NCBI GenBank assembly: GCA_963785725.1
Contig: CAWAWS010000016.1
Location: 256,001 to 320,000, forward strand
Length of the DNA: 64,000 bases
Reading direction: 5' to 3'
Origin: an uncultured delta proteobacterium
Lineage (GTDB): Bacteria > Myxococcota_A > Polyangia > Palsa-1104
Within the stretch, counting starts at the first letter, position 1. The number at the start of each line of letters is the position of its first letter. Positions 7,801 through 20,587 of this stretch are shown piece after piece. The notes beneath the pieces were generated by a model. It worked only from the letters and a program-made list of their open reading frames with translations, did no database searches and had not been told where the DNA came from. A program made the translations under genes and the position numbers.

Positions 7801-7877
7801 GCGCTGTCGTCGCAGCCGACCGCCGCCAGCAGCAGGAGACCGATGCTCGTCGTCGTCGCCTTCAACCGCCAGTTCAT
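4818..7877 (-). CDS. HzsA-related multiheme lipoprotein (three cytochrome-c-like repeats, TolB-like propeller, HZS-alpha-like domain)
   Basis: Lipobox AAVGC; CX6CH, two CX4CH and CAGCH; propeller motifs HPAVSYD, LVFASTR; LGRAALASDGSVQVRLPALTP. Confidence 0.7.
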   Translation of the reverse strand: MNWRLKATTTSIGLLLLAAVGCDDSAPAGPMFYERTIQPILTQNCVFNQGACHKDDGNGNALGNLDLTSYANLIRRKDVTRTFGSFSVPLLLLKATGADVPQFPYKGNSDGTTHFYTSEIQHVGGNSITVTSAAFTTLQKWLDDGANEDGSVTVRPSQVGTGPCNPDFATVRPDVAAQLTTVDTTTQAYKDFQANVEPVLAKSCTYSTCHSGEQSDFFLTCKGSGTDDADKFNYLEAQAYVGNPPETSEILLKPLAPSGGGLAHTGGSFFQTKTDPTWLKLSAWAAEVGAAQSTVMLSDGQQFFQDFIMPVFLKRGCALEACHSPGSTNDFKLRSGSQGFFSTFSLQENYNVARNQFLVADVPDVRQSRLVKKPVVSALEGGFGLVHRGGPPLQTAGETLDPTLCAQPFPTDGSATPFCAFVEWHRRERAALLTAGTVDAMASGSTLPLVSVVRPPDPDRNIDFDTYRPGADLVMGTIGVGVLGAIDGTKTTAGVSLIGNCAGVAADRSNVDVRHPAVSYDTSKLAFAMRLSATDTLDIYEVTLDATHTCTKVTDGNGMSQNGILRHNLDPMYASDGTLVFASTRGGAAGPTRSLKYLLPQTDLWRMSPNGSGGYGAPTQMTALLGSELSPAMMLNGQMTFTAEKASADFYQLSGRRINWDLTDYHPLLAQRSQSQGYTVDTQTLAMHPSVDYQQATEIREGLDRNFVLVLSDVGAKGGGGTLATFNRSVGPFESDRTDIQFLRSVEILDPNATGRAGATQGAYRSPFPLPDGNYLASWDGTVTDLSMQTPRYDLVIVNPVDGTHQSLAAFSGGAMSHVESVLVYRREPRPLFHNETQLVFGGHVDTTDPAHGTVHYPDLPMIATLLGANLRTGRFVDMMRAGTELVVYQDQAPPSDPAAAMAGLTGSQMVYQNRMELGRAALASDGSVQVRLPALTPVILELQSASGSKIFTMSEEDQLGPGEFISRGVPQKFFNSVCAGCHGSVSGLELDIALDQDALTSASVSLSRDASKIQTIGP

Positions 7878-8037: not shown

Positions 8038-8886
8038 CTAGCGGAGGTTGGCGAGCGCGGTCGTGGCGACCGAGCGAACCAGCGGATCGCTGTCGCTCTG
8101 CGCCTGCTGCAGCGCGGCGCGACCGGTGCCGTCCTTGAGCTGACCGATGGCCCACGCCGCCGACTTGCGCACGGCCGGCGCCGCGTCGGTGTTGACGATC
8201 GCCGTCAGCGCCGCCAGCGCGCCGGTGACGTCGCCGCCGGCGCCGCCGATGAAGCCGATGGTCACCGCCGCCTGATGGCGCACGTTGGCGTCGCCGTCGG
8301 CGAGCAGCGGCAGGAGCGGCGCCACTTGCGCAGCGACCGGCGAGCCCTTGGGCGCGCGCAGATCGCGCAGCGACGCCGCCGCTTGCGCGCGCACGCCGGC
8401 CAGAGGAGAGCCGAGCGCCGTCGCCAGCGTCGCCACGCTCGACGGATGCCCGATGGCGCCGACCGCCAAGACGACCGCGACGCCCGAATCCTCGTCGAGC
8501 GGATGCGTCAGATAGGCGCTCAAGGTCGGCAGCGTCGAGTAGTCGCGCATCGCCGCCAAGACGTCGCCGGCGTTGCGCGCCGCAATCGGATCGCTGCCGG
8601 TCGTCAAGCGCGCCGTCATGGCCGCGATGACCTCGGTGCGCACGCCGCGGCGCGTGAGCCACCAGCCGGCCGCGTCACGCACGCGCTGCTGCGGATGATC
8701 GACGAGCTGCTGCACGACGCCGATGCAGCCCAAGCAGGCCAAGTATTCGGCGCGCTCGATCTCGGCCACGATGGCGTCGGTCGATCCCGACTCGACGGCC
8801 GACTGAATGGCGATCTGCGAGCCACCACGTCCCGCCCATGCCGACGACGACAAGAGCGCGACCATCACGAACGTTGCCGTACGCAT
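8038..8886 (-). CDS. Exported HEAT-repeat protein
   Basis: Signal peptide; repeated VRxxAAxxL/IG units; CLGC near N-terminus; TAATG overlap with upstream gene. Confidence 0.8.
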   Translation of the reverse strand: MRTATFVMVALLSSSAWAGRGGSQIAIQSAVESGSTDAIVAEIERAEYLACLGCIGVVQQLVDHPQQRVRDAAGWWLTRRGVRTEVIAAMTARLTTGSDPIAARNAGDVLAAMRDYSTLPTLSAYLTHPLDEDSGVAVVLAVGAIGHPSSVATLATALGSPLAGVRAQAAASLRDLRAPKGSPVAAQVAPLLPLLADGDANVRHQAAVTIGFIGGAGGDVTGALAALTAIVNTDAAPAVRKSAAWAIGQLKDGTGRAALQQAQSDSDPLVRSVATTALANLR

Positions 8887-11105
8887 TAGTAGACCCTCCC
8901 CGGCGAATTCTCGCGGAAGTAATATTGTCCGCCGGTGTCGGCGTTCAGGATCATGAGGTAGTACTCGTCGGCCGACAGCTGGTACTTGGTCGACGTGCCA
9001 TCGAAGCCGTTGTACGTGCCGACCTCGGCCGGATGCACCGGCGTCGTCGGGTAGGCGCGCGTCGTCATGTCGACGGCCGGGAAGCGCACCGGCGGGTTCA
9101 ACATCTGAATCGCGACCGAGTCGTGCGCCGCGCCCGACGTGATGTACTGCTTGACCTCGCCCGAGATGGTGATCTGCTTCTCCATGAACGCCATCTGCGG
9201 ACCGAGCATCGACACGTACGACGAGTTGTAGGTGTACATCGTGTCGCCCGCGTCGATCGTCACCGGCGTCGACGTCAGGTTGAACGTGAAGCTGAACATC
9301 GTCATGTCGGTGACGTCGGTGATGGTGTAGCTCGGGTTGGCGGCGCCGGCGGTGCCGTCATGGCAGTCGATGCAATGCGCGTCGAAGATCGGCTGAATCG
9401 CCTTGTCCCACGGCGTGCCCATGACTTGCTCGTAGGTGAACGTGTCCGACAGGCGATCCTGGCGCGGCACCGTCGAGAACAGGTCGACCGCGTCGGTGGC
9501 CTGCAAGAGCGACGAGCCGGGCGCGATGGCGATGGCTTCGGTGCGGCTCTCGTGGCAGCCGCCGCAGACGCGCGATTCGCCGGGACGGCCCTGAATCCAG
9601 ATGGGCTCGGACGCGGTGTCGCCGCCCGGGCTCGAGCCGGCGGTGGTGAGCGCCATGCCGAATTGATCGATGAGCTGCAAGCGCACCGGCGTGTTGGCCG
9701 GGACGAGCGCCTTGAACGAGCCGTCGGGGTTGACCGGGACCTCGCCGAGGCGCGCCTGACCGTCGAACTCCGAGAGGCCGAACATGTTGGGGAAGCCCTC
9801 TTCGGTCGAGAAGCCTTCGGAGACGCGCACCTTGACGGCGGTGCCTTTGGTCATCCCCGGGAACATCGTGGAGTCGTAGACGTTGACGGCGGCGAGCAAG
9901 GTGCCGGCCGTGTTCTGCGTCGGGAAGAGCGGCGTCAAAGTCGGCGGCTCGGTGCGCGGGGCGATGGCGATGGGCGAGTGCTCCCACGTGCCGATGCCGT
10001 TGACGACCGGGTAGCGCGTCTGCGACTTGGAGTCGAAGACGTAGATGCCGAAGTCGGGCGACGTCTTGGCCATCGACAGCGTGCCCGTCTCGACCGGACC
10101 GTCGGCCCAGGTGACGAGGAAGCGATCGGTCGTGCCCGGCAGCGGCGCGACGTCGTAGTAGCGGCCGACGCCGGCGAACGACGGCGTGCGATCGGCGGGC
10201 ACGAGCGGCGTCAGATCCTCGGCCGACGACAGCGCCTCCGACTGCTTGGTGATGTCGGTGCCGCCCAAGTTGATGCGCAGGATCTTGCCGGCCTGATAGG
10301 TGCGATCGCGCGAGGTGCCGATCGCCAGGATCATGCCGGGCGAGACCTCCTTGGCGCGCAAGTAGGAGTTCGTCAGGCCCTTGCCTTCGCGACCGAAGCC
10401 CTCGCGCACGCCGGTCAGGTCCTGCTGCATGATCGTGAGATCGCCTTCGTTGGTCTCACCCAAGTGGCGCCACTCGGTCATGAGCACGCGGCCGTCCGAC
10501 AACAGCGTCGGCTTGACGCGGTGCGAGACGTTGCGCGGCGCCAGCGTGATGTCGGAGCCGTCGAGGTTCATGCTGCCGGCCTGCGCCGTCGTCGCGCGCT
10601 CGTACTCGTCGCGAAACTGCGGCACGGCGGCGCCTTCGACGTTTTGGTTGGTGCAGAAGAAGATGCGACCGGCCGGCATGTAGATGGGGTCGACCTCGTC
10701 GTTGGCGCCCATCGTGATCTGACAGGGGCCTTGCGAGACCTTGCCCAGCGCCGCGTCGCACGGGTTGGTGCCGTCGACGTTGACGCGGAAGATGTGATAG
10801 TGGTCGTCGCTCGGCGCGCGGCCGGAGAAGACGAGCTCGCGGGCGTCGAACGACAGGTCGACCGAGTTCACGTCGCCGCCCGACCAGTTGGTCAGGTTCT
10901 TCTTCACGCCGTCGGCGGTCGGCGGCGTGAGCGTGAACAGGTTGCCGTCGTTGCCGTTGCCCGTGTAGTCGAACACGTTGCCGGTGTCGACGGGTGAACG
11001 CGAGATGTACGCGATCGCCGGCACACCCCCGAGCACGTTGGACTGTCCGCTGTCGCATCCGAGCGGCAGCGCGGCAGCCATGGCCAGCGTCAGGATCTTG
11101 CGCAT
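8886..11105 (-). CDS. HzsA-related diheme lipoprotein (beta-propeller plus HZS-alpha middle-like domain)
   Basis: GGAGG RBS, lipobox LPLGC, SFDARELVFS, DPIYMPAGRIFF, LGEVPVNPDGSFKALVPANTP, CGGCHE and CIDCH. Confidence 0.75.
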   Translation of the reverse strand: MRKILTLAMAAALPLGCDSGQSNVLGGVPAIAYISRSPVDTGNVFDYTGNGNDGNLFTLTPPTADGVKKNLTNWSGGDVNSVDLSFDARELVFSGRAPSDDHYHIFRVNVDGTNPCDAALGKVSQGPCQITMGANDEVDPIYMPAGRIFFCTNQNVEGAAVPQFRDEYERATTAQAGSMNLDGSDITLAPRNVSHRVKPTLLSDGRVLMTEWRHLGETNEGDLTIMQQDLTGVREGFGREGKGLTNSYLRAKEVSPGMILAIGTSRDRTYQAGKILRINLGGTDITKQSEALSSAEDLTPLVPADRTPSFAGVGRYYDVAPLPGTTDRFLVTWADGPVETGTLSMAKTSPDFGIYVFDSKSQTRYPVVNGIGTWEHSPIAIAPRTEPPTLTPLFPTQNTAGTLLAAVNVYDSTMFPGMTKGTAVKVRVSEGFSTEEGFPNMFGLSEFDGQARLGEVPVNPDGSFKALVPANTPVRLQLIDQFGMALTTAGSSPGGDTASEPIWIQGRPGESRVCGGCHESRTEAIAIAPGSSLLQATDAVDLFSTVPRQDRLSDTFTYEQVMGTPWDKAIQPIFDAHCIDCHDGTAGAANPSYTITDVTDMTMFSFTFNLTSTPVTIDAGDTMYTYNSSYVSMLGPQMAFMEKQITISGEVKQYITSGAAHDSVAIQMLNPPVRFPAVDMTTRAYPTTPVHPAEVGTYNGFDGTSTKYQLSADEYYLMILNADTGGQYYFRENSPGRVY

Positions 11106-11133
11106 CGTTCGAGCCTCCACGGCTCGCTCGTAG

Positions 11134-11149
11134 AGCAAGCAGCGGGCCG
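11134..11149 (-). promoter_or_regulatory. Candidate sigma54 promoter
   Basis: CGGCCCG-CTGC-TTGCT (GG-N10-GC) upstream of the RBS of 11105. Confidence 0.5.
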
Positions 11150-11158
11150 AAGCGAAAC

Positions 11159-11932
11159 CTAGGGATTCCGAATAATTGGCGTGACGCCTGCAGGAACGCT
11201 GGGGGTCGGCGCCCCCGGCGCGACGGGCAAGTGAGGGTCACCGCCCCCCTCTTGCTCCTGCACCGACTCGGCTTCGTCGGCGCCCTCCTCGGCCGTCTTC
11301 TCGGCTTCGAGATCGCCTTTGACGTCCTTCGAATAACGCGCGCGCTCGCCGGGACCCGAGTAGTCGATCCAGAACGCGTTGTGCCGCAAGCGCGACGGAT
11401 CGACGTCGAGGTGCACGAAGTCGGAGTTCGGATAATAGCCGACGCCGACGCGCGGCAGCGTGCGCTCGAAGTCGCGCAGCTCGGTGTTGGCGATGCCCTC
11501 GACGCGGAAGTCGCAGGCCACGCCCTTTTTGTGCGGCGACTTCGGGTTGCCCTTCTCGCGCGCGACGCGTGGCGCGCGATAGCCGGCGACGACGACGATG
11601 CGCTTGAAGTCGAAGTGCTGATCGACCTGGTAGATGAGCTGCGCCAGCCGCGTCGACATGTAATGCACGCGGCCCGTGTGATGACAGCGCAGGAAGCGAT
11701 TCCAGCCGTGCAGCTGCGCCTTACTGAAGCGACCGTGCGCGTCGGGCCGCAGCGTGAAGGTCTCGTGCGTGTTGATGGCGTAGAGCTCGGCCGCGGGCGG
11801 CGGCGGCGGCTTCGGCTTGCGCGGCGGCTTGGCGTGCGCGATGGCGCCGGAGAGCCCGACGACCAACGTGGCGACCAGCGCGCGTAGCATCGCCTTCAGT
11901 GTTTTCGGCGCAGCCTTCGCTGTCAATGCCAC
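11159..11932 (-). CDS. YcbK/MepK-like (DUF882, peptidase M15) Zn peptidase
   Basis: GYRAP, SPHKKGVACD, GVGYYPNSDFVHLDV motifs; start uncertain. Confidence 0.85.
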   Translation of the reverse strand: MALTAKAAPKTLKAMLRALVATLVVGLSGAIAHAKPPRKPKPPPPPAAELYAINTHETFTLRPDAHGRFSKAQLHGWNRFLRCHHTGRVHYMSTRLAQLIYQVDQHFDFKRIVVVAGYRAPRVAREKGNPKSPHKKGVACDFRVEGIANTELRDFERTLPRVGVGYYPNSDFVHLDVDPSRLRHNAFWIDYSGPGERARYSKDVKGDLEAEKTAEEGADEAESVQEQEGGGDPHLPVAPGAPTPSVPAGVTPIIRNP

Positions 11933-11971
11933 TGTCTATAATAGACGCGTTGCCGTGCTACTTTGTTCGCC

Positions 11972-12409
11972 ATGACCGTGCTGTTGCTGCTGGCGACGCT
12001 CGTCGGTGCGCTCTTCGTCCTCCGGCAGCTGGTGACGACGCGAGCGGCCCAGCGGGCGACGCCGGCCTTGCGCCTGGCCGGCGGGCCGCCCGACGACGCC
12101 CGTCACGGCGACAGTGACGGCGATGAAGCCGGCGCCGGGCGACCGCTGCTCGACGCCATCGCGCTGGTGCTGCGCGCGCAGGGCGCCGAGGTCGCCGCCG
12201 TCGAGGCCGACGACTGGGGCTTCGCGGCCGCGGCGATCGTCGACGGGCAGCCGTTGACGCTGAAGCTCGGCGCCCACGGATCGAACGGCGTCGGGCCCGA
12301 GTGGCTGCTCGTGCTCGACGGCGCGCACGACTCGGCGGCGCTGCGGCGCGCGATCGAAGCGGCGGCCGCCGCCGTCACCGGGGTCAAGCTGCTCGGCTGG
12401 GACGACTGA
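11972..12409 (+). CDS. Hypothetical protein with N-terminal membrane anchor
   Basis: Hydrophobic N-terminus; TGcTACTTT 7 nt before ATG. Confidence 0.6.
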   Translation: MTVLLLLATLVGALFVLRQLVTTRAAQRATPALRLAGGPPDDARHGDSDGDEAGAGRPLLDAIALVLRAQGAEVAAVEADDWGFAAAAIVDGQPLTLKLGAHGSNGVGPEWLLVLDGAHDSAALRRAIEAAAAAVTGVKLLGWDD

Positions 12410-12421
12410 CCGACGCCCAGC

Positions 12422-14020
12422 TCAGTCGCATTCCTGCTCCCACATGCGCTCGCTCTTCCATTCGCGCTGCGTGTGGCCGGGAGCGGGCGTGAGGCTGTAG
12501 TCTTCGTAGAGCGCGAAGTGATCGAGCGGCTGACCGTCGACGCCGCCGGCGGTGCGCCAGCTCGCGCACAAATAGCGGCCCAAGGCCTTGAACAGCCGCG
12601 TGCGCCGCGGGCTCGGCTGCTCTTTGGTCAGCGCGAGCGCGTATTTGGTCCAGCGATGGTTGCTGTCGATGCCGTTGAACGAGACGGGGCCGCCGTCGAT
12701 TCCGTGCAAGCGCGTCGACCTTGCGACCGTCGATGAGCACGCCCTCGGCGCGCACGGTGCGATCGGACGGCAACGGCCGCGGCGCGAACATGTCCCAGCG
12801 CTGCCACAGCTCGATGACGCGCATGACGCTCGAGAGCGGCCGCGGCAAGTGCGCGCCCGCCTCGCCCGGCAGCGAGTAGAGCATGGCCATGACCAGCGTC
12901 GCCGCCAAGAGCGCGCGGCCGACGGAGCGGTAGCGCGGCCGCCACGAGAACGACCGCAGCGGCTCCGGCCCGACGAGCTGCGCACGCCACGGCACCAGCA
13001 GCCGCTCGCGCCAGCTCGCCGGCAAATCCGACGCGCGCGCGCCACCAGCGCCTCGGCCCAGCGCGGCTCGAAGAGCAGCGGATACGAGGCCAGCATCATG
13101 AGCGAGAAGTTGCCGACGTTCATGGTGAGGGCGATGCCGACGTGCAGCCCGAGGCCGGCGAGGAGCGCCAGCTTGCGCAGCCGCGACTGCTGAATCGGCG
13201 CGAAGACCAGCAAGACGAAGGCGGCCTCGAACGCCAGCGTGCCGTAGGTCGCCGGCACGGTCAGCCAGCCGGCATTGAAGAGCGCGGCGCCGAGGCGACG
13301 CGTGAACAGGTGGTCGAGGCCGAACGCGTAGTGCAGCGCGGTGCCGTTTTCCCAGGTGCGATCGCCGATCTTGCATAAGAACGTGCACACGTAGATCCAG
13401 CACAGCTGCAGCTGCAAGAGGCGCACGACGAAGGGAGCGCCGTGCATCGGCAGCGGGCGGCCGGCGGCGCGCGCCTCTGCGGCGTCAACCGAGTAGGTCG
13501 CGCCGATGGGCAAGAACAGGCACCAGAAGAGGAAGACGCGCGCCACGCTGTCGGAGCCGTCGAAGATCATCGGGTTCCGCTCGTGCAGGCCGGAGACGAG
13601 GACGAAGGTGGCGATGGCGGCCCACCGCGTGCGCCAACCGGCGACGAAGGCGAGCGTCGCGACGACCGCGAGCAGCCACAGCGCCCACGTCATCGCCAAC
13701 GGACCGGCGAGGTCGAAGACGGAGAAGCGGTCGGCGCGCGCCACGCCGCCGAGCAGCACCGAGCGCGGCAGGACGCCTTCGTCGGACAAGAGCGCGCGCA
13801 GCACCGGCGCCACGGTCGCGAGCGACCACAAGACGACGGTGCCGAGCGTGATGCGCATGAGGCCGAGCGGCCGGAGATCGAGCGGCGCCGTCCAGAAGCG
13901 ACGCGTGAACGGATGGTCGCCCTCGGGCGGCTGTGCGACCGTCGCCAGCGCATCGCGCGCGGGCACGGCAACGTCGGACACATTCACGAGCTGGAGCGCG
14001 GAGCTCGACATGGAGGTCAT
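12422..14020 (-). CDS. HTTM-domain membrane protein with two compensating frameshifts (about 13035 and 12709)
   Basis: LGLMRITLG, LSDEGVLPR, RNPMIFDGSD, IYVCTFLCKIGDRTWENGTA; LWQRWDMFAP lies in the alternative frame 12384..13403; ATGA overlap at start. Confidence 0.8.
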   Translation of the reverse strand: MTSMSSSALQLVNVSDVAVPARDALATVAQPPEGDHPFTRRFWTAPLDLRPLGLMRITLGTVVLWSLATVAPVLRALLSDEGVLPRSVLLGGVARADRFSVFDLAGPLAMTWALWLLAVVATLAFVAGWRTRWAAIATFVLVSGLHERNPMIFDGSDSVARVFLFWCLFLPIGATYSVDAAEARAAGRPLPMHGAPFVVRLLQLQLCWIYVCTFLCKIGDRTWENGTALHYAFGLDHLFTRRLGAALFNAGWLTVPATYGTLAFEAAFVLLVFAPIQQSRLRKLALLAGLGLHVGIALTMNVGNFSLMMLASYPLLFEPRWAEALVARARRICRRAGASGCWCRGVRSSSGRSRCGRSRGGRATAPSAARSWRRRWSWPCSTRCRARRARTCRGRSRASCASSSCGSAGTCSRRGRCRPIAPCAPRACSSTVARSTRLHGIDGGPVSFNGIDSNHRWTKYALALTKEQPSPRRTRLFKALGRYLCASWRTAGGVDGQPLDHFALYEDYSLTPAPGHTQREWKSERMWEQECD

Positions 14021-14457
14021 TCCTTTGTTGGATCGCGACCGCGGGTGGGAGGCAGGCCGGCGCGCGCCACGCCCGTCAGGACCGCGACGAGGCAAGCGGC
14101 CAATCCCGCGCCCAGCCCGAGCGAGCGGTAGACATCGCCCGAAGTCGCGCCGAAGAAGAGGCCGGCGTAGACGATGAGGACGCCGGTCGGCAAGAGCATG
14201 CGGATCGGCGTGAACAGTCGCGTGCGCCGCGGCTCGGGGCGCACGACGGCGAGCACGGTGAAGACGAGGTAGAGCGCGGCCGCGACCAGCGTCGCTTCGA
14301 CGAGCGCGTGCAGCGGCGAGACCGCGCGCACGCCGTCGGCGCCCCACTGCAGCGTCACGGCATGCGGCCAATGCGCGCGCGTCAGCCAGGCGCCGCCGTA
14401 AAACAGCGCCAGCGCGCTCGCGGGGACGATGATCGCCGGCGACGACGCGGTCCTCAC
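14017..14457 (-). CDS. Small 4-TM membrane protein, DUF1648/SdpI-like immunity candidate
   Basis: GTG start overlaps hydrolase stop (GTGA); WPHAVTLQWGADG after TM1 resembles DUF1648 LPxxVPxHWxxxG. Confidence 0.55.
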   Translation of the reverse strand: MRTASSPAIIVPASALALFYGGAWLTRAHWPHAVTLQWGADGVRAVSPLHALVEATLVAAALYLVFTVLAVVRPEPRRTRLFTPIRMLLPTGVLIVYAGLFFGATSGDVYRSLGLGAGLAACLVAVLTGVARAGLPPTRGRDPTKE

Positions 14458-15977
14458 GGCCGCACCGTAGCCACGATCGCGTCGACGAGCGCGGGCGCGA
14501 TCGGCAGCTGCGGATCGCGGTAGCTCGCCTGCGGCGACGACGTCGACGGATCGACCTTGAGCGCGTGGCTGACGCCGGCGAGGATGGTCAATTCGACGCC
14601 GGGACGCGCCGCCGCCAGCAGCCGCGCGTCGCCGACCGTGACCTGCAGATCGTGGTCGCCTTGGATGACGCGCGTCGGCAAGGTCAGCCGCTTCTGCAGC
14701 GCGAGGGGATCGGCGAACAGCCAGCCTTGACGAAAGCGAAACATCGCGCGCGTAAAGAGCGCCGCCAGCGCCGGATCTTGCGGCGCGACGAAGCGGCCGG
14801 CGCGCTCGCCGGCGACGAGGCGGTCGTACTCCTGCAAGGTCGTCGCCGAGGCCAGCGCGGCCAGCTGCTCGCGCAGGAGCGTCGCTACCGGACGTCCGCT
14901 CGTCGACAGCAGCACGAGGCCGTCGAGCGGCAGGTGCTGCGCCAGCATGAGCGCGATGAGGCCGCCTTCGGAGTGGCCGCAGACGTAGAGCTTGGAGACG
15001 GCCGGATCTTTGCGCGCGAAGGCGACGACGGCGGCCGCGTCCTGCACGAAGTCGTCGAAAGAGACGGCCTCGAGGTCGCGCGGCCAATCGCTGGCGCCGA
15101 CGCCGCGCTTGTCGTAGCGCAGGCTGGCGATGCCGCGCGCTGCCAACGCCTCGGCCAGCAGACGATAGCTGGCGGACGTGACGCCGAGCGTGCTGTTGCC
15201 GTCGCGATCGGTCGGGCCCGAGCCGGCGACGAGGACGACGGTGGGAAACGGGCCCGCCCCTTCCGGTCGACGGATGGCGCCGCGCACGGTGACATCGGCG
15301 CGCTCGACCGCGAACGGCGCCTCGCTTGCCGGCGACGGCGACGCCGGCTGCGCCGACTGCCGCACGCTCACCTGCCGGTCGACCGCGTGCGCGACGAGGC
15401 CTTGGCTGGGCACGCCGCCGGCCACGACGACGCCCGCCGCCGACAAATCGACCGCGACGGTCACCGCGCCGATGACGACCGCGACGTGGCGACCGCCGTC
15501 GGGCCGCGCCGTCACCTGGATCGTGCCCGGCACGACGACCGCCCGCGACGGCACCAGCACCTGCACCGGCGTCGGCGTCGCGGCAGCGGCGAAGTCGTCG
15601 GCGGCGACGAGATAGGCGCCCCAGTGAAAATTCTCGAGCGCGAGCCCGCCGGCCGGGATGTCGCGCTCGAGCCGCTCGCCGCCCTGCTCCAGCGTCACCC
15701 GGCGATGATCACGATCGATGCGAATGGTGACGTCGCCGCTGCCTTCGAAGCGCAGCTGGCTGGTCACGACATGGCCATCGTCGCTGAACTCTTCGCGCCC
15801 GATCTCGCGGTCGCCGATCGTCGTCGCCAGCGCGCCCTGGCGCAGCGGCCGCGCCGGCGCGACGGGCGCGGGCCGAACGACCACCGGGCCCGCGACCGGC
15901 GTCTGCGCGCGCGGCCCGGCGCAGCCGAACCCGACCAGCGCAAACAAGAGCGTCCATTGCGGCGGCTTCTTCATCAT
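14454..15977 (-). CDS. Lipoprotein alpha/beta hydrolase
   Basis: Lipobox VGFGC; GSGPTDRDGN, RYDKRG, GHSEGG nucleophile, QGDHDLQV, VSHALK. Confidence 0.88.
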   Translation of the reverse strand: MMKKPPQWTLLFALVGFGCAGPRAQTPVAGPVVVRPAPVAPARPLRQGALATTIGDREIGREEFSDDGHVVTSQLRFEGSGDVTIRIDRDHRRVTLEQGGERLERDIPAGGLALENFHWGAYLVAADDFAAAATPTPVQVLVPSRAVVVPGTIQVTARPDGGRHVAVVIGAVTVAVDLSAAGVVVAGGVPSQGLVAHAVDRQVSVRQSAQPASPSPASEAPFAVERADVTVRGAIRRPEGAGPFPTVVLVAGSGPTDRDGNSTLGVTSASYRLLAEALAARGIASLRYDKRGVGASDWPRDLEAVSFDDFVQDAAAVVAFARKDPAVSKLYVCGHSEGGLIALMLAQHLPLDGLVLLSTSGRPVATLLREQLAALASATTLQEYDRLVAGERAGRFVAPQDPALAALFTRAMFRFRQGWLFADPLALQKRLTLPTRVIQGDHDLQVTVGDARLLAAARPGVELTILAGVSHALKVDPSTSSPQASYRDPQLPIAPALVDAIVATVRP

Positions 15978-16019
15978 GGCCTCGTCATACCGCGACTGCG
16001 GCGGGCGCAACAACGGCGC

Positions 16020-16994
16020 TCACGCCGCGTGCTCGGCCGCGACCGGCGCGACCACCAGCGCCAGCTGCGGCGCCGGCCCGCGCCGCGACAGCCGCATGCG
16101 CAGCGCGTCGATCCAGGCGAACGGCTCGTCGACCGGCTGCAGAAAGAGGATGAGCGCCGCCGACATCGAGCCGAAGAAGCTGACGAGACCGTGGATGAAG
16201 ATGATGGCGGCGTGGAAGGCCAGCCCCAGCGGCAACAGCCGACGCCGCCAACGCCGCTCCATGAACAGCGCGCCGAACAGCACGACCTCGAGCAGCAGCG
16301 TGCCCCACGTCAAGGCCACGACGCCCGCCGACTTCGACAGGATCGGCATCGCCCAGCGCTCCAGCGTCGGCGACAGACCGATGGTGGAGTTGGTGAACCA
16401 GTAGTAGCAAGCGGTGCCGTCGCGCCACTCTTTGACGCCGAGCTTGGCGGTGCTGGCGTGGAAGTAGATGCCGGCCACCTGCAGGCGGACCGTCCACAGC
16501 ATGAGGCGGCTCACGAACGCCGCCAGCTGCGCGCCGACGCCGGGGCCGATCGCCGGCGGCGCATCCCAGTGCCAGCGGCGGCCGTCGGTGAGCGTGACGG
16601 GCACGAGCAGCAGCGCCAACACCGCCGCGATCTGATCGCCGCCGTCGATGACGATGCACGACGTGGCGAAGCTGGCGGCCACGTACCAATGCAGGATGCC
16701 GGTGAAGCGCGGCCGCCAGCCCGACACGACGAGCGCCAGCACGGCAATCGCGATCGCGCGCGCCAGCCCGAGGTGCGCCGGCGCGAGGAGGCCGAACAGG
16801 CTCAGCCGCACCGGCAAAAAGTCGCCCGCCGCGTCGAGCATCGTCTGATTCGCGGGCCGAAACAGCATATCCGACGAGTTGACGATCAGCGTCAGCAGCG
16901 TGCCCGACGCGACGACGGAGCGCGCCAGCCCGACGACGTTGGTCCAAACCGGGCGTTCAGTCGTGTGCTCGATCGATTTCATCGTGTCCCTCAT
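16020..16994 (-). CDS. sdpB: SdpB-family antimicrobial peptide system protein
   Basis: PVWTNVVGLARS, VVSGWRPRFTG, DGGDQIA, LTDGRRWHW, IYFHASTAKLGVKEWRDGTA; ATGA overlap with sdpA. Confidence 0.88.
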   Translation of the reverse strand: MRDTMKSIEHTTERPVWTNVVGLARSVVASGTLLTLIVNSSDMLFRPANQTMLDAAGDFLPVRLSLFGLLAPAHLGLARAIAIAVLALVVSGWRPRFTGILHWYVAASFATSCIVIDGGDQIAAVLALLLVPVTLTDGRRWHWDAPPAIGPGVGAQLAAFVSRLMLWTVRLQVAGIYFHASTAKLGVKEWRDGTACYYWFTNSTIGLSPTLERWAMPILSKSAGVVALTWGTLLLEVVLFGALFMERRWRRRLLPLGLAFHAAIIFIHGLVSFFGSMSAALILFLQPVDEPFAWIDALRMRLSRRGPAPQLALVVAPVAAEHAA

Positions 16995-17530
16995 TTCCAG
17001 ATGACGTTGAGCTTGACGACGTCCGACGGCATGTAGACCCGATCGCGCGCCGCGCTCCAGGCCCACGGCACCGGCTGCGCCGAGGCAATGACCACTTCGC
17101 CCGCCAGCGAGCGCACGAGCATCGGGTTGACGACGCGCGCCACCGGCAGCTTGGGATTGGCCAGGCAGGCGTCGAGGCTGCCCTCGCATTTGAAGTGCTT
17201 GGACGCGGGCACGAGGCTCATCAGCTTCTCGATCTCGGCGCCCTCGACGCGGTCGTTGCGCTTGAGGCCGAGCCAGACCCGCGACTGCGCTTGGCTGTGC
17301 CGCACCCAATGGCCGTTCTCGCGCAGGTAGACCGACTTGCTCGACTCGCGCGGGTCGCGCGTGAAGAAGGCCCAGCCCTCGGGCAAGATCGAGACGAGGC
17401 GCGTTCGCGTCGCGACGCCGGCGGACAGCGGCATCTCCGTGATCGAGCCGCAGGCGACGAAGACGATCAGCGCCACCCAAACGGCGACGATCGCGCCTTT
17501 CATGACGAGCAAGAGACTACGAGCGCTCAT
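16991..17530 (-). CDS. sdpA: SdpA-family antimicrobial peptide system protein
   Basis: PEGWAFFTRDPRE and PVPWAW motifs; GGAGGAG RBS. Confidence 0.88.
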   Translation of the reverse strand: MSARSLLLVMKGAIVAVWVALIVFVACGSITEMPLSAGVATRTRLVSILPEGWAFFTRDPRESSKSVYLRENGHWVRHSQAQSRVWLGLKRNDRVEGAEIEKLMSLVPASKHFKCEGSLDACLANPKLPVARVVNPMLVRSLAGEVVIASAQPVPWAWSAARDRVYMPSDVVKLNVIWK

Positions 17531-17567
17531 GGTGCTTCTCCTCCGTGAAAACCGTGGCCAAACTGCC

Positions 17568-17612
17568 GCCTCCATCCGCGCCGGCCGGCGGCGACCGCGC
17601 GCGGATGGAGGC
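17568..17612. terminator. 14-bp perfect inverted repeat between precursor genes and sdpA
   Basis: GCCTCCATCCGCGC (17568-17581) / GCGCGGATGGAGGC (17599-17612). Confidence 0.7.
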
Positions 17613-17620
17613 GCTTCGAG

Positions 17621-18436
17621 CTACTTCGCCAAGTGCACGGCGATGGCGTCGACGAACTGGTCGTGCGACACGCCCGCCGCCCCGTTCACCGCCCGACTGG
17701 AGGTGGCGATGTGCAGGTAAAAGATCGGCGGATACACCGGGATCACGACGGCAACGAAGATCGGCTGGACGATGATCGGATCGACGACGATCGGCGCCGG
17801 CGGTGCCGGCGGAGTGCCGCCGGTATCGCCGCTGTCGGCGCCACCGCTGTCGCCGCTGTCGGCGCCGCCGCTGTCGCCGCTGTCGGCGCCACCTTCGTCT
17901 CCAGCGCCGTCGTCACCGCCGCCGCCGCCGTCCTCGACGCACGTCGCGCAATAGTCGTCGGCGTGCACGCCCGCGCCCTTGTGCGCCTGCGCCGCCCGCT
18001 TCTGCAGCTTGCGCGCCGAGGCCTGCGCCAGCTTGCCCGCCGCGTCGAGCGACCGCTCGATGCGCAGGCGATCCCCGCTCTCCATGTCGGCCTTGAAGTC
18101 CGCGAAGAACGCCGGCTGCTGCGCGCGCATCTGACGCACCAGCCCCATGAGCTGCGTCTTGGCCTTGGCCAGCTGCTGCGCGTCCGGAACCGCGTGCTCG
18201 AGCTTCTGCGCGCTACCGATCTCGGGCAGCGCGTCGGCCACGCGGCCGCTACCGAACGCGATGCCGAGAAAGAGCTCTTCGCCCGTGTAATCCGGCCGCG
18301 CCGTCGCCGGCTGTGCCGCCGTCGCCGCCGCCTGCTGCGCGACGACCGTGCTCTCGGAGCCGCCCGGCGCCACGCCGCAACCGAGCGCGAACGACAGCGC
18401 CAGCGCGCCGAAGGTCCATTTATAGCTTCTCTTCAT
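17621..18436 (-). CDS. SdpC-family toxin precursor 2
   Basis: Lipobox FALGC; YTGEELFLGIAFGSGRVADALPEI; FFADFKADMESGD; C-terminal DQFVDAIAVHL; adjacent to sdpAB. Confidence 0.8.
   Translation of the reverse strand: MKRSYKWTFGALALSFALGCGVAPGGSESTVVAQQAAATAAQPATARPDYTGEELFLGIAFGSGRVADALPEIGSAQKLEHAVPDAQQLAKAKTQLMGLVRQMRAQQPAFFADFKADMESGDRLRIERSLDAAGKLAQASARKLQKRAAQAHKGAGVHADDYCATCVEDGGGGGDDGAGDEGGADSGDSGGADSGDSGGADSGDTGGTPPAPPAPIVVDPIIVQPIFVAVVIPVYPPIFYLHIATSSRAVNGAAGVSHDQFVDAIAVHLAK
17826..17893. repeat. 24-nt in-frame tandem repeat (about 2.8 copies, GGADSGDS)
   Basis: TCGCCGCTGTCGGCGCC(A/G)CCGCTG units at 17826, 17850, 17874. Confidence 0.85.
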
Positions 18437-18440
18437 TGAC

Positions 18441-19400
18441 TCAGTTCCCCTGATTCTGGTTAGCGACGAGGTGCACCGCGATCGAGTGGACGAGCTGCTC
18501 CTGGATGAGCGACGACTCGGGGACGCCGTTCTTGTAGGCCGGCAGCGCCACCACCGCCGCCAGCGCCGCCGCGACCACCGACGCGACCGAGATGTTGTGC
18601 ACGAGCGCGATGTGGACCGCGGCCGCGACCGCCACCCACAGCACGACCGCCGCCGACTTGTAGATGAGCGACAGGCCAGCCACCGGGCCGGTGCCATCGT
18701 CGCCGCCGCCGCCGTCGTCGGCCGTGCCGTCGTCGCCGCCGTCGTCGGCGCTGCCGTCATCGGCGCCGCCACCGTCGTCGCTGCCGCCGCTGCCGCCGTC
18801 CTCGACGCACGTCGCGCAATAGTCGTCGGCGTGCACGCCGCCTTTGCCGTGCATCGCGACGAGGTGCTCCTGCGTCTTCGACTTCAGCTCGGCGAAGGTC
18901 TGCGGCTCCTTGCCGTCCAAGCCCAGCTCCGCCGGCGACATCTTGGCCAGCCGCGCCTTGGCCGCCTTCGTCCCCGGCAGCCCGTCGACCGCCGCCTGCG
19001 TCACCAGGCCGGCGTCCCACAGGCCCTTTTGGATGACCAGGTGATCGCCGCTCTCCATCTGCGCCTTGAACGCGTCGAAGAACTCCGGCTTGGAGCTGCG
19101 CACGAGCGCCACGATCTTGTCCTCGGCGCGCCGCACGGTCGCCAGCGTCTTCGGCGAGGTCTGGAAGTTCTCCAGCTTCAGGTTGTCGCGAATCTCGGGG
19201 ATCGCGTCAGCCACCGGGCCGTGCAAGAGCATGATGCCGCGATAGAGCTGCTCGCCGGTATAACCCGACGTCGCCGCCGTCGTCGCTGCCGCCGCCGTGG
19301 GCGCGACCGCTGCTGACCCGGAGCCGGGCTGTCCCACGCATCCGACCATGACGACCGCCAAGATGGGCGCCGTCAGTGCTGCTACTTTCCAATGTTCCAT
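18441..19400 (-). CDS. SdpC-family toxin precursor 1
   Basis: GGAGG RBS; lipobox VMVGC; YTGEQLYRGIMLLHGPVADAIPEI; FFDAFKAQMESGD; Ala/Val-rich core; EQLVHSIAVHL. Confidence 0.82.
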   Translation of the reverse strand: MEHWKVAALTAPILAVVMVGCVGQPGSGSAAVAPTAAAATTAATSGYTGEQLYRGIMLLHGPVADAIPEIRDNLKLENFQTSPKTLATVRRAEDKIVALVRSSKPEFFDAFKAQMESGDHLVIQKGLWDAGLVTQAAVDGLPGTKAAKARLAKMSPAELGLDGKEPQTFAELKSKTQEHLVAMHGKGGVHADDYCATCVEDGGSGGSDDGGGADDGSADDGGDDGTADDGGGGDDGTGPVAGLSLIYKSAAVVLWVAVAAAVHIALVHNISVASVVAAALAAVVALPAYKNGVPESSLIQEQLVHSIAVHLVANQNQGN

Positions 19401-19462
19401 TCGTCCGTCCTCCGCTTTGCGTTGCGCGCGCGGCTGCATTCGCCGCGAGCGTGCGACCGCAC

Positions 19463-19478
19463 TTCAACCGCCGTGCCA
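19463..19478 (-). promoter_or_regulatory. Candidate sigma54 promoter of the Sdp-like operon
   Basis: TGGCACG-GCGG-TTGAA: perfect -24 box, -12 GA instead of GC. Confidence 0.55.
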
Positions 19479-19642
19479 CGACGCGTTTACCGTCGCTGAC
19501 AGCGGCCGAGCAGCGCATACGCGCGGGTCCACGTGCGCAAGATCACACGCGCTGCCGCCGCGGCTCGAGCAGGTCCGATTCGTCGACGGGAATGGCCGCA
19601 GAGACGCGGCGCGGATGGGGCGACGGCGAACGAAGACCCACC

Positions 19643-19676
19643 GTCCCATGAGACTGTCGCGGGACTGTCCCGCGTC
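19643..19676. promoter_or_regulatory. Palindrome/direct repeat, candidate activator binding site
   Basis: CGCGGGAC-T-GTCCCGCG (19658-19674); GACTGTC twice, 11 bp apart. Confidence 0.4.
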
Positions 19677-19714
19677 AGCGGTCGCGCGCGCCCCGGACGA
19701 TCACGCTGAAGCGA

Positions 19715-20587
19715 CTAGAGCGCGCGCAGCAGCCGCTCGAGCTCGACGCGCATCGCGGCCGGCGACTGCGCGTGGAAGCGGCGGCCATGGCCGGGCAAGA
19801 TCGTGTGGAACGAATACTGAAGTAACCGCTTCAGTGATTGCAGCTGCTCCGTCCACGAGTACCAGCAGACGTCGCGGCCGGCGTCGAGACGGCCGAGCTC
19901 GTCGTCCCACCAGACGTGGTCGCCGGTGAAGAGCACGCCGTCGTGCAGGAGCGCCAGCGAGCCGCGCGTGTGGCCGGGCACGGGAATGAGCAGCAGATCG
20001 TCGGCGAGCGCGATGGGATCGGCGCCGTCGACGCGCTGCTCGATGGCGAGCCGGCCGGCATCGGCGGCGTGCATGACGCGCGTACAGCCGAAGCGGCGCG
20101 CCAGCTGCTCGTGGTCGGCGACGTCGTCGCGATGGGTGAGCACCAGCTGCGCGACGCCGCCGAGCGCCGCCAGTCGCGCCATGAGCGGACGCGCGGCGCG
20201 CGGCGAATCGACGAGCACATTGCCGCGCGCGCGGACGATGAGGTACGAGGCGGCGCCGTAGGAGTCGGCGCTGTGGTAGCCGCAGTAGTAGATGTCGCCG
20301 TCGCCGATGCGCTCGGGAAAGCGGGCGGCGGCGGCGCGCGCGGCGCCGGCTTTGGCCAGCGGCTGCGCGCCGATGCTGGCCGTCGGGCAGGCGACGAGCG
20401 CCATGAGCGCGCGCTCGGTGGCGGCGGCGTCGCCGTCGTCGGGCTGCGCGGCGACGATGGATTGGTCACCCGCGCGCGCGAAGACCTGCGGCGCCAGCTG
20501 GCGGCAGGCGTCGCAGTCGATGCAGCTGTCGTCGACGAAGAAGCGGCCGGGCGCATTGCCAAAGAGCCGATGAGCGACGCGCGCCAT
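19715..20587 (-). CDS. Ferredoxin-fused MBL-fold metallohydrolase
   Basis: CIDCDAC...CP; THRDDVADH, PGHTRGS, FTGDH, LPGHG. Confidence 0.88.
   Translation of the reverse strand: MARVAHRLFGNAPGRFFVDDSCIDCDACRQLAPQVFARAGDQSIVAAQPDDGDAAATERALMALVACPTASIGAQPLAKAGAARAAAARFPERIGDGDIYYCGYHSADSYGAASYLIVRARGNVLVDSPRAARPLMARLAALGGVAQLVLTHRDDVADHEQLARRFGCTRVMHAADAGRLAIEQRVDGADPIALADDLLLIPVPGHTRGSLALLHDGVLFTGDHVWWDDELGRLDAGRDVCWYSWTEQLQSLKRLLQYSFHTILPGHGRRFHAQSPAAMRVELERLLRAL

Follow-up and report, generated by a model that had tools for sequence, protein, structure and literature searches.

A seven-gene block around sdpA and sdpB with two predicted SdpC-like lipoprotein precursors in an uncultured, probably soil-dwelling myxobacterium

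The Sdp-type toxins treated in the part of PMC6818787 available to us come from Bacillus. The toxin SDP is given there as residues C141-S182 of its precursor SdpC, i.e. as 42 residues of the hydrophobic domain, and SdpA and SdpB are stated to be required for the processing; this part of the source offers no mechanism by which the two proteins convert SdpC to SDP. SdpC homologues are described in it as alike over the N-terminal three quarters, each with a hydrophobic C-terminal domain of its own, and the yitPOM island is said to bring its own membrane antitoxin YitQ, which is not an SdpI protein, as well as the secreted protease NprB. In addition, an SdpC-family protein has been listed for Myxococcus xanthus (PMC3924187) and an SdpABC-like system has been reported from a Gram-negative flavobacterium (PMC6421346). 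Here we analyze a locus of this family in an uncultured delta proteobacterium of the class Polyangia, located on a stretch of 64,000 nucleotides (nt) from contig CAWAWS010000016.1 of assembly GCA_963785725.1 (positions 256,001 to 320,000), which is called the window in the following and to which all coordinates without a further label refer.

The locus is a block of seven genes whose center is formed by a genuine sdpA-sdpB pair together with two SdpC-like precursors of the lipoprotein type. Judged from its sequence and by analogy with sdpABC of B. subtilis, it probably yields one or two secreted hydrophobic toxic peptides, although a fair measure of doubt stays with this reading. The products are predicted to be membrane-attacking peptides, and the functions in toxicity, immunity and predation discussed below are putative. 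The features of the locus are:

12418-19743, minus strand: inserted block of about 7.3 kb, consisting of the seven genes and a leader of about 275 nt (delimited by blastn against four same-genus genomes)
19464-19478, minus strand: sigma-54-like -24/-12 element, TGGCAC-N5-TTGA, TGGCACGGCGGTTGA, 25-64 nt upstream of two candidate C1 starts; a weak lead
18441-19400, minus strand: C1, sdpC-like precursor 1 (319 amino acids), GGAGGA 9 nt upstream, alternative ATG at 19439
17621-18436, minus strand: C2, sdpC-like precursor 2 (271 amino acids), called from reading frame, third-position G+C content and start context
17567-17613, minus strand: hairpin with a stem of about 21 pairs that starts 8 nt behind the C2 stop and lies within the 90 nt between C2 and sdpA
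16991-17530, minus strand: sdpA (179 amino acids, single N-terminal hydrophobic segment), GGAGGAG ribosome-binding site; PF17418, TIGR04034
16020-16994, minus strand: sdpB (324 amino acids, multi-pass membrane protein, HTTM superfamily); TIGR04033
14454-15977, minus strand: hydrolase (507 amino acids, lipoprotein-type alpha/beta hydrolase); PF12146
14017-14457, minus strand: 4TM (146 amino acids, four hydrophobic segments, GTG start); no family
12422-14020, minus strand: HTTM2 (membrane domain like that of SdpB and vitamin K-dependent gamma-carboxylase, plus a C-terminal domain); PF05090, two frame breaks as assembled

Since the region has a G+C content of about 70%, spurious open reading frames (ORFs) are numerous, and the genes were therefore called from the ORF list together with a frame plot of the G+C content at third codon positions (GC3) and the context of start codons and ribosome-binding sites. 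All seven genes lie on the minus strand and span 12422-19400. C1 and C2 are 4 nt apart, C2 and sdpA 90 nt, and sdpB and the hydrolase gene 42 nt, while sdpA/sdpB and 4TM/HTTM2 are joined by ATGA overlaps and hydrolase/4TM by a GTGA overlap. These co-oriented genes and their junctions agree exactly with those given in an earlier note on this DNA. The upper limit of 19478 set there is no coding end; it is the first base of the sigma-54-like element. The diderm host assumed in the same note is confirmed by a BamA protein encoded in the genome (TIGR03303, 653 bits). The taxon names attached to HTTM2 homologs (Myxococcales, Polyangiaceae, Deltaproteobacteria) and the soil metagenome runs that contain the locus suggest that this host is a myxobacterium from soil.

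SdpA exceeds the cut-offs of both PF17418 (94.4 bits, cut-off 25) and TIGR04034 (90.8 bits, cut-off 53.1) and is thus a member of its family. SdpB matches TIGR04033 with 241.1 bits (cut-off 178.4) over model positions 7-276 of 276, which makes it a full-length member. The genome possesses a single sdpA and a single full sdpB. For comparison, 113 sdpB loci (1.72 Mb) were assembled, 79 of them from genome records, at least 32 from metagenomes and two from relatives. The metagenome scan with the SdpB alignment covered 35 of 64 parts, and among the matches listed from these parts no SdpB relative exceeded 53% identity. Named records with SdpB loci include Longimicrobium, Gemmatimonadetes, Bacteroidota, Flavobacterium, Bacillales and Actinomycetes as well as Pyxidicoccus, Polyangiales, Nannocystales, Myxococcales and Acidobacteriota, so that SdpAB loci occur across Gemmatimonadota, Bacteroidota, Myxococcota, Acidobacteriota, Firmicutes and Actinobacteria, i.e. 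in at least six phyla. In 107 of the 113 loci sdpA adjoins sdpB. Three of the six loci without sdpA (L012, L120, L123) begin at the sdpB match or within about 225 nt of it; the other three (L065, L078, L130) have room upstream, yet no SdpA match was found there. Two tandem sdpA-sdpB pairs each are present in L014 and L109, L020 shows a second sdpB, cut by the contig end, before its pair, and L049 has four SdpC-like genes around one sdpA-sdpB pair. Sdp parts are thus multiplied elsewhere too, not just in this window.

Both precursors match the SdpC profile TIGR04032 (cut-off 99.2 bits), C1 with an E-value of 2.7e-15 (56.6 bits, model positions 2-105 of 172 only) and C2 with 8.8e-22 (77.8 bits, positions 2-114 of 172 only). 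The SdpABC-type core that the earlier note had proposed is therefore borne out, given that SdpA and SdpB pass their curated thresholds and that the SdpC profile recognizes C1 as well as C2, with the reservation that both precursor scores stay under its cut-off. The same note had presented this SdpABC-like operon in a diderm as its best candidate for an undescribed system. This view cannot be upheld: the 79 genome loci include diderm records, the two reports cited above (PMC3924187, PMC6421346) precede this analysis, and with SdpAB loci in at least six phyla the locus is a variant of a known and widespread family, diderms included, and defines no new kind of system. A literature search found no paper joining HTTM with SdpB, and the match to a search for sporulation delaying protein and myxobacteria concerned, in its available part, biofilms of B. 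subtilis.

C1 starts with a lipobox (VMVGC) and an SdpC-type N-domain, followed by DDYCATCVEDGG, an acidic Gly/Asp spacer, two hydrophobic segments and a conserved tail. C2, which is 36% identical to C1, has the lipobox ALGC, the N-domain, a CxxC motif as in C1, a spacer of the GGADSGDS type, one Pro-rich hydrophobic segment and again the conserved tail. Both proteins thus combine a signal peptide, an N-domain, a hydrophobic C-terminal domain and a conserved tail, and both are encoded beside sdpA-sdpB. The sdpB loci contained 52 SdpC-like ORFs, and 17 SdpC-like sequences were aligned. Common to all 17 are the signal peptide and the N-domain (YxGExLFRG...GPVA...DPxFF...SGD), after which comes a variable linker that in most of the inspected sequences ends in a Cys right before the hydrophobic domain; the tail behind this domain is of the type 'S.L..[DE]..V..IA..L'. 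Only C1 and C2 carry DDYCATCVEDGG and the spacer of about 40 Gly/Asp/Ser residues, which occur in none of the 15 other aligned precursors. The lipobox pattern was detected in nine of the 52 SdpC-like ORFs, each of which comes from a diderm-type or a metagenome record, whereas the 23 ORFs from named Firmicutes and Actinobacteria records did not show it; the precursors of Pyxidicoccus (GPGC) and of the genome G058 look similarly lipobox-bearing. A search for C2 homologues among 8000 word-sharing candidates, in which low-complexity words dominated, returned only C2 itself and C1, which is no evidence of isolation.

C1 has its nearest relative among the precursors (43% identity, tail SRLLQEQLVHSVATLLAS) on a metagenome contig of 238 kb; the CxxC-spacer is missing from this protein. 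In its locus (L125), sdpB is followed by a gene for a 148-residue protein (10958-11401, plus strand) with an N-terminal CxxC, three hydrophobic segments and no Pfam match, which may be another immunity-type partner. A further SdpC-like N-domain, from a delta-proteobacterial metagenome-assembled genome (L038:6358-7602, plus strand), runs into a long repeat of the 'PRAEPPRRH' type and has no hydrophobic domain, for which either a frameshift or an expanded repeat may be responsible.

The seven genes and their leader behave as one unit. Homology to the same-genus genomes, as detected by blastn, ends at 19733-19750 and restarts at 12407-12417. Between these ends there are only 41-69 base pairs (bp) in G001, G002 and G004 and about 400 bp in G003. 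The seven genes together with the leader therefore represent a single insertion or deletion. The whole gene set moves as one block. On one side it is flanked by a ferredoxin/metallo-beta-lactamase fusion gene (19715-20587) and on the other by a small conserved ORF (11963-12409), followed by an M15 peptidase gene (11159-11932). Both flanking proteins were found in five of five queried relatives (four of the same genus, one of the same family), and they are adjacent in all four same-genus genomes. Neither an integrase nor a tRNA gene was found at the flanks of the block, and the best flanking direct or inverted repeat is a 12-nt direct match outside the junctions. The G+C content of the block is 0.709, compared to a genome mean of 0.679 +/- 0.025, and 7.5% of equal-sized windows are equally high. 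SdpA is present in two of 60 relatives, among them none of the four same-genus and none of the ten same-family genomes, and in two of 400 genomes sampled from the phylum; the two SdpA-bearing relatives possess only sdpA-sdpB plus an SdpC-like gene. Gain of the block in this lineage is the simpler reading, and the rarity of SdpA among relatives fits an acquisition as a unit.

The hydrolase matches PF12146 with 76.2 bits (cut-off 27) and has a Ser-Asp-His triad, which places it in the Hydrolase_4 family. Its best NCBIfam match is EstD (NF041096, an equivalog), where it reaches 98.7 bits, far below the cut-off of 600. Behind a GFGC lipobox it consists of an all-beta N-domain and an esterase-like catalytic domain. 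The closest solved structures by sequence are cinnamoyl and chlorogenic acid esterases (E about 1e-9), and its AlphaFold model best resembles feruloyl/cinnamoyl esterases and lipases (TM-target 0.70-0.79). The mean predicted local distance difference test score of this model is 67.7, with values mostly of 80-96 in the catalytic domain (49-64 in four blocks of ten residues) and of 40-69 in the N-domain. A peptidase appears less likely, as S9 and acylaminoacyl peptidases match only weakly and both sequence and fold favor esterases or lipases.

With the catalytic half as query and a threshold of 40 bits, a hydrolase homolog was found in six of the 113 sdpB loci (L013, L026, L049, L073, L107, L126), compared to three matches in the 8.9 Mb of the own genome, the island copy included. 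In L013, from a Gemmatimonadetes metagenome-assembled genome, and in the metagenome contig L126, the first 4 nt of the hydrolase gene are shared with the end of sdpB. In L026 from Flavobacterium ichthyis the hydrolase gene follows sdpB, and in the metagenome contig L107 it comes after sdpC and two DUF1648 genes. The hydrolase of the window and five full-length sdp-linked homologs retain the complete triad, with the Ser in the GHSEG motif; L107 is cut before the triad. We tentatively consider a role of the hydrolase in maturation or release, with rather more doubt than confidence. A paralog in the own genome (L132; G000:C15:298770-300128, minus strand) shares 40% identity and the two-domain layout, but has GHGEG at the motif and no catalytic His; it is not linked to sdp genes, adjoins a gene for a SPOR-like protein and is, from its sequence, probably a non-catalytic relative. 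In L026 the sdpB-linked hydrolase gene is directly followed by one for a DCC1-like thiol-disulfide oxidoreductase (12558-12923, plus strand; PF04134), the same domain that is fused to many relatives of HTTM2, which hints at a thiol/redox link for HTTM-type enzymes.

HTTM2 scores 28.9 bits with PF05090 (cut-off 27.7) and 57.8 bits with TIGR04033. A profile alignment with hhalign relates SdpB to the HTTM2 family over 261 columns (98.2% probability, E 3e-14), and the HTTM2 family profile in turn matches chains of vitamin K-dependent gamma-carboxylase with E 3.4e-10. One Lys is invariant in the family (K217 in HTTM2) and corresponds to K184 of SdpB; in the carboxylase it is aligned with the second residue of the pair 'KK', which is residue 187 of a 696-residue chain and residue 218 of a 758-residue chain. 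We take this Lys218 to be the catalytic base of the carboxylase. To speak of two maturase modules in the locus goes too far: the last gene does encode an SdpB homolog, but there is only one SdpA, and the last gene is frame-shifted as assembled. HTTM2 has 47 relatives, many of them proteins of Myxococcales or Polyangiaceae with a fused DCC1-like thiol-disulfide oxidoreductase; two more distant relatives carry PF06762 (lipase maturation factor). The closest relatives are P0006 (80% identity) and P0007 (66%). P0007 and the 4TM relative P0004 are recorded on one contig each, of 22,544 bp in both cases, so that the 4TM-HTTM2 pair is probably conserved together. The HTTM2 family is present in 99 of 401 genomes of the class (E <= 1e-20), with a best non-self identity of 35%. 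Since no hydrolase or 4TM gene was found within 1.5 kb of 19 HTTM-family loci of the class, a general hydrolase-HTTM module is not seen. A repeated hydrolase-4TM-HTTM module in the own genome was also considered and rejected, as the hydrolase paralog on contig C15 and the HTTM paralogs on contigs C7 and C8 lie in unrelated contexts.

The 4TM protein has no Pfam or NCBIfam family, and DUF1648 (PF07853) is unmatched even at E <= 10. Among 5.8 billion clustered proteins it has a single homolog, P0004 (66% identity); a metagenome scan with the 4TM alignment gave 66 pattern matches, none of which was confirmed. No 4TM homolog was found with this query in the 113 sdpB loci by tblastn, which can miss small divergent membrane proteins. 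A survey for small membrane proteins within 4 kb of sdpB (90-300 amino acids, at least three hydrophobic windows, no overlap with core genes) yielded 57 small multi-segment ORFs in 40 of the 113 loci. DUF1648 and/or SdpI domains are encoded no more than 4 kb from sdpB in 14 of the 113 loci (E <= 1e-3), and in nine of these 14 the match exceeds the Pfam cut-off. In Streptomyces loci, the proteins with DUF1648 only (139-182 amino acids, and one ORF of 212) read 'LPDxVxTHxGxDGxDGF..P' after the first segment, and the matching stretch of 4TM reads HWPHAVTLQWGADGVRAVSP. Moreover, hhalign places 4TM on the 'P..V....GxDG' motif of DUF1648, weakly (E 0.17 and 0.034), and among the Atlas neighbors of 4TM, DUF1648 clusters hold ranks 2 and 3 (0.88 and 0.87; of 256 features, 196 and 192 are in common). 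By its position and by analogy with SdpI and YitQ, 4TM is a possible immunity factor, with prospects that we put somewhat below even.

Near other sdpAB genes we observed further membrane proteins. The intramembrane metalloprotease YhfC is encoded in L016, L018, L019, L021 and L056, DUF3784 occurs in L016, L018, L019 and L022, and HAAS-domain proteins in L016, L022 and L104, all of these loci being from Bacillales and relatives. In place of SdpI, such proteins may form alternative immunity or sensing sets. Other partners near sdpB are ABC-2 permeases and one Rce1-like protein.

Some signals for the regulation of the block were found as well. The RNA of 17525-17630 (minus strand, 106 nt) folds with -56.5 kcal/mol (z-score -3.59, none of 200 shuffles as stable) and contains the stem-loop 17567-17613, which has no directly following U-run. 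This stem-loop could be a partial terminator or a 3' stabilizer. The sigma-54-like element shows a single mismatch to TGGCACNNNNNTTGC, which strikes the -12 GC (GA instead), and the number of such matches in the whole window (63) is near that expected by chance (61.8). No sigma-70-like promoter was found in 12000-20000. Terminator-like sites are not in excess within the block (three, with 3.1 expected), and none lies in the 42-nt gap between sdpB and the hydrolase gene.

Taken together, a scheme of the following kind can be proposed. C1 and C2 would be exported and lipidated, and SdpB, with its Lys aligned to Lys218 of the carboxylase, would together with the membrane-anchored SdpA convert the pro-proteins into active hydrophobic peptides. 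The hydrolase, a predicted lipoprotein with an intact triad whose gene overlaps sdpB in other phyla, probably assists in maturation, in release or in self-protection. 4TM possibly serves as immunity factor, as SdpI and YitQ do in Bacillus, and HTTM2, whose gene accompanies that of 4TM, would be another enzyme of the SdpB type. Through the hairpin behind C2, the precursors are probably made in large excess over the enzymes.

Several points weigh against this scheme. C1 and C2 both stay below the cut-off of TIGR04032 and match it with the N-terminal domain only, and their hydrophobic parts have no detectable relatives; the Pro-rich segment of C2 is atypical for a membrane helix. Because an acidic spacer of about 40 residues is placed between the hallmark Cys and the hydrophobic part, Bacillus offers no guide to the cleavage sites. 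In a diderm host, a hydrophobic peptide would also have the outer membrane to cross. The hydrolase resembles carboxyl-esterases and lipases more than peptidases, and two of its six sdp-linked cases are weaker, since the gene in L073 lies upstream on the opposite strand and that in L049 is located 3.2 kb downstream of sdpB with four ORFs in between. As to immunity, an sdpR/sdpI pair was not found near the locus, where the flanking genes are of the housekeeping type, and PF13630 and PF07853 (SdpI, DUF1648) gave no match at E <= 0.01 in the whole genome, which is 88% complete. The link of 4TM to DUF1648 is weak, as seen from the missing Pfam match and the hhalign values, and the His of the motif is a Gln in 4TM. 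Finally, neither 4TM nor the C-terminal part of HTTM2 was found in any of the 113 sdpB loci, and HTTM2 as assembled lacks the near-invariant 'ELWQRWDMFAP' of its family.

The last point leads to the state of the seventh gene. HTTM2 leaves the frame of its homologs near 13024-13030 and re-enters it near 12708-12709, so that about 105 codons are read out of frame; homologs match the ORF frame up to '...ARARR' and again from 'HGIDGGP...', and 13 of 19 homologs of the class match the out-of-frame piece at 30-52% identity. A repair would need one additional base near 13024-13030 and one base less at the TT of 12708-12709. These breaks might be real mutations, in which case the seventh gene would be a pseudogene or encode an altered protein and the system would work, if at all, without HTTM2. 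We regard such a partial decay in this strain as unlikely, though it deserves serious consideration. It would account for the other frame used by the homologs, and a comparison with the soil-metagenome run X1 can be read in its favor. X1 contains a copy of the whole block with about 96% identity in eight contig pieces, one of which spans HTTM2, 4TM, the hydrolase gene and the end of sdpB, and another C1 and the sequence into the flanking gene. Among the X1 indels listed for the 7.4-kb stretch (five more are on record), the others have lengths divisible by three, are offset by a second indel no more than 5 nt away or fall between genes, i.e. no other one changes a frame in the coding parts. The X1 contig has the extra base behind 13024, which speaks against decay, but at a depth of only 4.7 of 10.1, so that contigs without this base may also exist in the X1 sample. 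The X2 contig over 12540-12741 shows one gap. Moreover, the stretch read out of frame has kept a GC3 periodicity in the frame of the homologs (0.92-0.98), a pattern to be expected if the change is very recent or stems from the assembly, and the two sites are a GG and a TT doublet. Doublets are sites where run-length errors arise. The X1 copy does not count as independent conservation, since X1 may be related to the source sample.

It could also be argued that the block unites two unrelated modules that are inherited together, a toxin cassette sdpC1-sdpC2-sdpA-sdpB and a separate envelope module of hydrolase, 4TM and HTTM2, for instance an esterase or lipase with a maturation factor of the LMF1/HTTM type, without any role in toxicity or immunity. 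This would agree with the absence of 4TM and of the C-terminal part of HTTM2 from the 113 sdpB loci, with the parallel occurrence of P0004 and P0007 (both 66% identical, each on one contig of 22,544 bp), with the PF06762 domain of two distant HTTM2 relatives and with the fact that the last three genes overlap one another while 42 nt part them from sdpB. Against it stand the single insertion or deletion of all seven genes relative to the four same-genus genomes, the lack of a terminator-like site in the 42-nt gap, the 19 HTTM loci of the class with neither hydrolase nor 4TM nearby, and the same type of hydrolase that overlaps sdpB in the Gemmatimonadetes genome and the metagenome contig and follows sdpB in Flavobacterium. 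We therefore consider two separate modules rather improbable. A lack of co-conservation of the three extra genes with sdpAB, which the earlier note had named as a refutation, is seen for 4TM and HTTM2 (0 of 113 loci) but not for the hydrolase (six of 113), and all three genes belong to the same insertion block as sdpAB. Even less probable, in our opinion, is a function of the products other than as toxins, namely as SdpC-like envelope or signaling lipoproteins that SdpB and HTTM2 chemically modify and not merely cleave, e.g. on the acidic CxxC-spacer. SdpB and HTTM2 are indeed homologous to a modifying enzyme, the vitamin K-dependent carboxylase, and keep the aligned Lys, the conserved CxxC and the Asp/Glu/Gly-rich stretch are lacking in other members of the family, and a recognizable immunity gene was found neither with Pfam nor in the genome-wide search for SdpI and DUF1648. 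But the family includes SDP and YIT, two toxin systems that have been shown experimentally according to the available part of PMC6818787, the hydrophobic C-terminal domain and the conserved tail are retained, and the patchy, island-like distribution is typical of competition genes.

The production of secreted toxic peptides thus remains the preferred reading of the locus. What is new here are the lipoprotein precursors with a CxxC-acidic spacer, the recurrent esterase partner and the extra SdpB-like enzyme paired with a small membrane protein. Diderm members of the family often have lipoprotein precursors, the esterase-like hydrolase is a recurrent partner of sdpB that is joined to it by overlapping codons, and SdpB and HTTM2 keep a Lys aligned with the active-site Lys of vitamin K-dependent carboxylase. 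The locus therefore offers concrete leads on the maturation step and a candidate pair of antibacterial peptides from a soil myxobacterium. As a speculation with a small chance of being correct, one could imagine a diderm-adapted Sdp class, in which lipid-anchored pro-toxins with an acidic, CxxC-headed spacer would be matured by two quinone-dependent carboxylase-like enzymes (SdpB and HTTM2), freed by a dedicated esterase and passed through the outer membrane to other cells, with vesicles or outer-membrane exchange as the route and with killing by myxobacteria or the discrimination of kin as the purpose. If true, this would expose the long-unknown chemistry of SdpAB.

Some observations concern the neighborhood of the block. 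The ORF 11963-12409 (plus strand) encodes 148 residues without a family, is convergent with the island and lies outside the insertion; its DNA is 70-75% identical in the four same-genus genomes. The ferredoxin/metallo-beta-lactamase gene is matched in G002 (C4:239459-240314) by two pieces that overlap; a broken frame is the likely cause in this assembly, which has nine contigs and is 53% complete. Two proteins encoded at 4818-7877 and 8886-11138 (minus strand; 1019 and 750 amino acids) have PF18582, the middle domain of hydrazine synthase alpha, as their sole Pfam match (22.8 and 47.7 bits).

With respect to the individual components, the closest comparison for SdpB and HTTM2 is the vitamin K-dependent gamma-carboxylase/HTTM group (PDB 9wfn, 9bvk, 13ib and others), whose membrane domain is matched by the HTTM2 family profile and with which both share the aligned Lys. 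SdpB differs in that it has no PDB match by sequence and no Pfam HTTM match, and we know of no Gla-type substrate, propeptide site or quinone dependence for SdpB. In a similar way, 4TM is like SdpI/DUF1648 proteins in size, in the layout of four segments and in the 'P..V....GxDG' stretch after the first segment, but unlike them it has no Pfam match, reaches no better than E 0.034 with hhalign, carries Gln for the His of the motif and lacks the C-terminal domain of SdpI.

At the level of gene clusters, the sdpAB-hydrolase cassettes of L013, L026 and L126 resemble the locus by a two-domain 'GSGPxDRD...GHSEG' hydrolase directly after sdpB, and L107 by its lipoprotein-type precursor, with two DUF1648 genes set between sdpC and hydrolase. 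These four loci have no HTTM2 or detectable 4TM, and their aligned precursors no CxxC-acidic spacer (in L126 no precursor was detected). Compared to sdpABC/sdpRI of B. subtilis, as far as described in the available part of PMC6818787, the locus has the same kind of clustered genes, SdpA and SdpB above their cut-offs and precursors with an SdpC-type N-domain, a hydrophobic domain and a short tail. It differs by the gene order C-C-A-B in place of A-B-C, two precursors that lie below the TIGR04032 cut-off, lipoprotein signal peptides, the CxxC with an acidic Gly/Asp spacer of about 40 residues, three extra genes and a diderm host, and sdpR and sdpI were not found. The closest analog in organization is the yitPOM-yitQ-nprB island of B. 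subtilis, described in the same part of PMC6818787. The regulator yizB is present only there and the second HTTM protein only here, the yit host is a monoderm, and NprB is a neutral metalloprotease that aids the toxin through the biofilm matrix, whereas an esterase-like alpha/beta hydrolase is found here. Like the locus in the window, however, the yit island is an sdpABC-paralogous block between conserved genes with a co-inserted secreted hydrolase, its precursor is SdpC-like in the N-terminal part only and has a hydrophobic domain of its own, and its membrane antitoxin YitQ, which is unrelated to SdpI, may be likened to the candidate 4TM.

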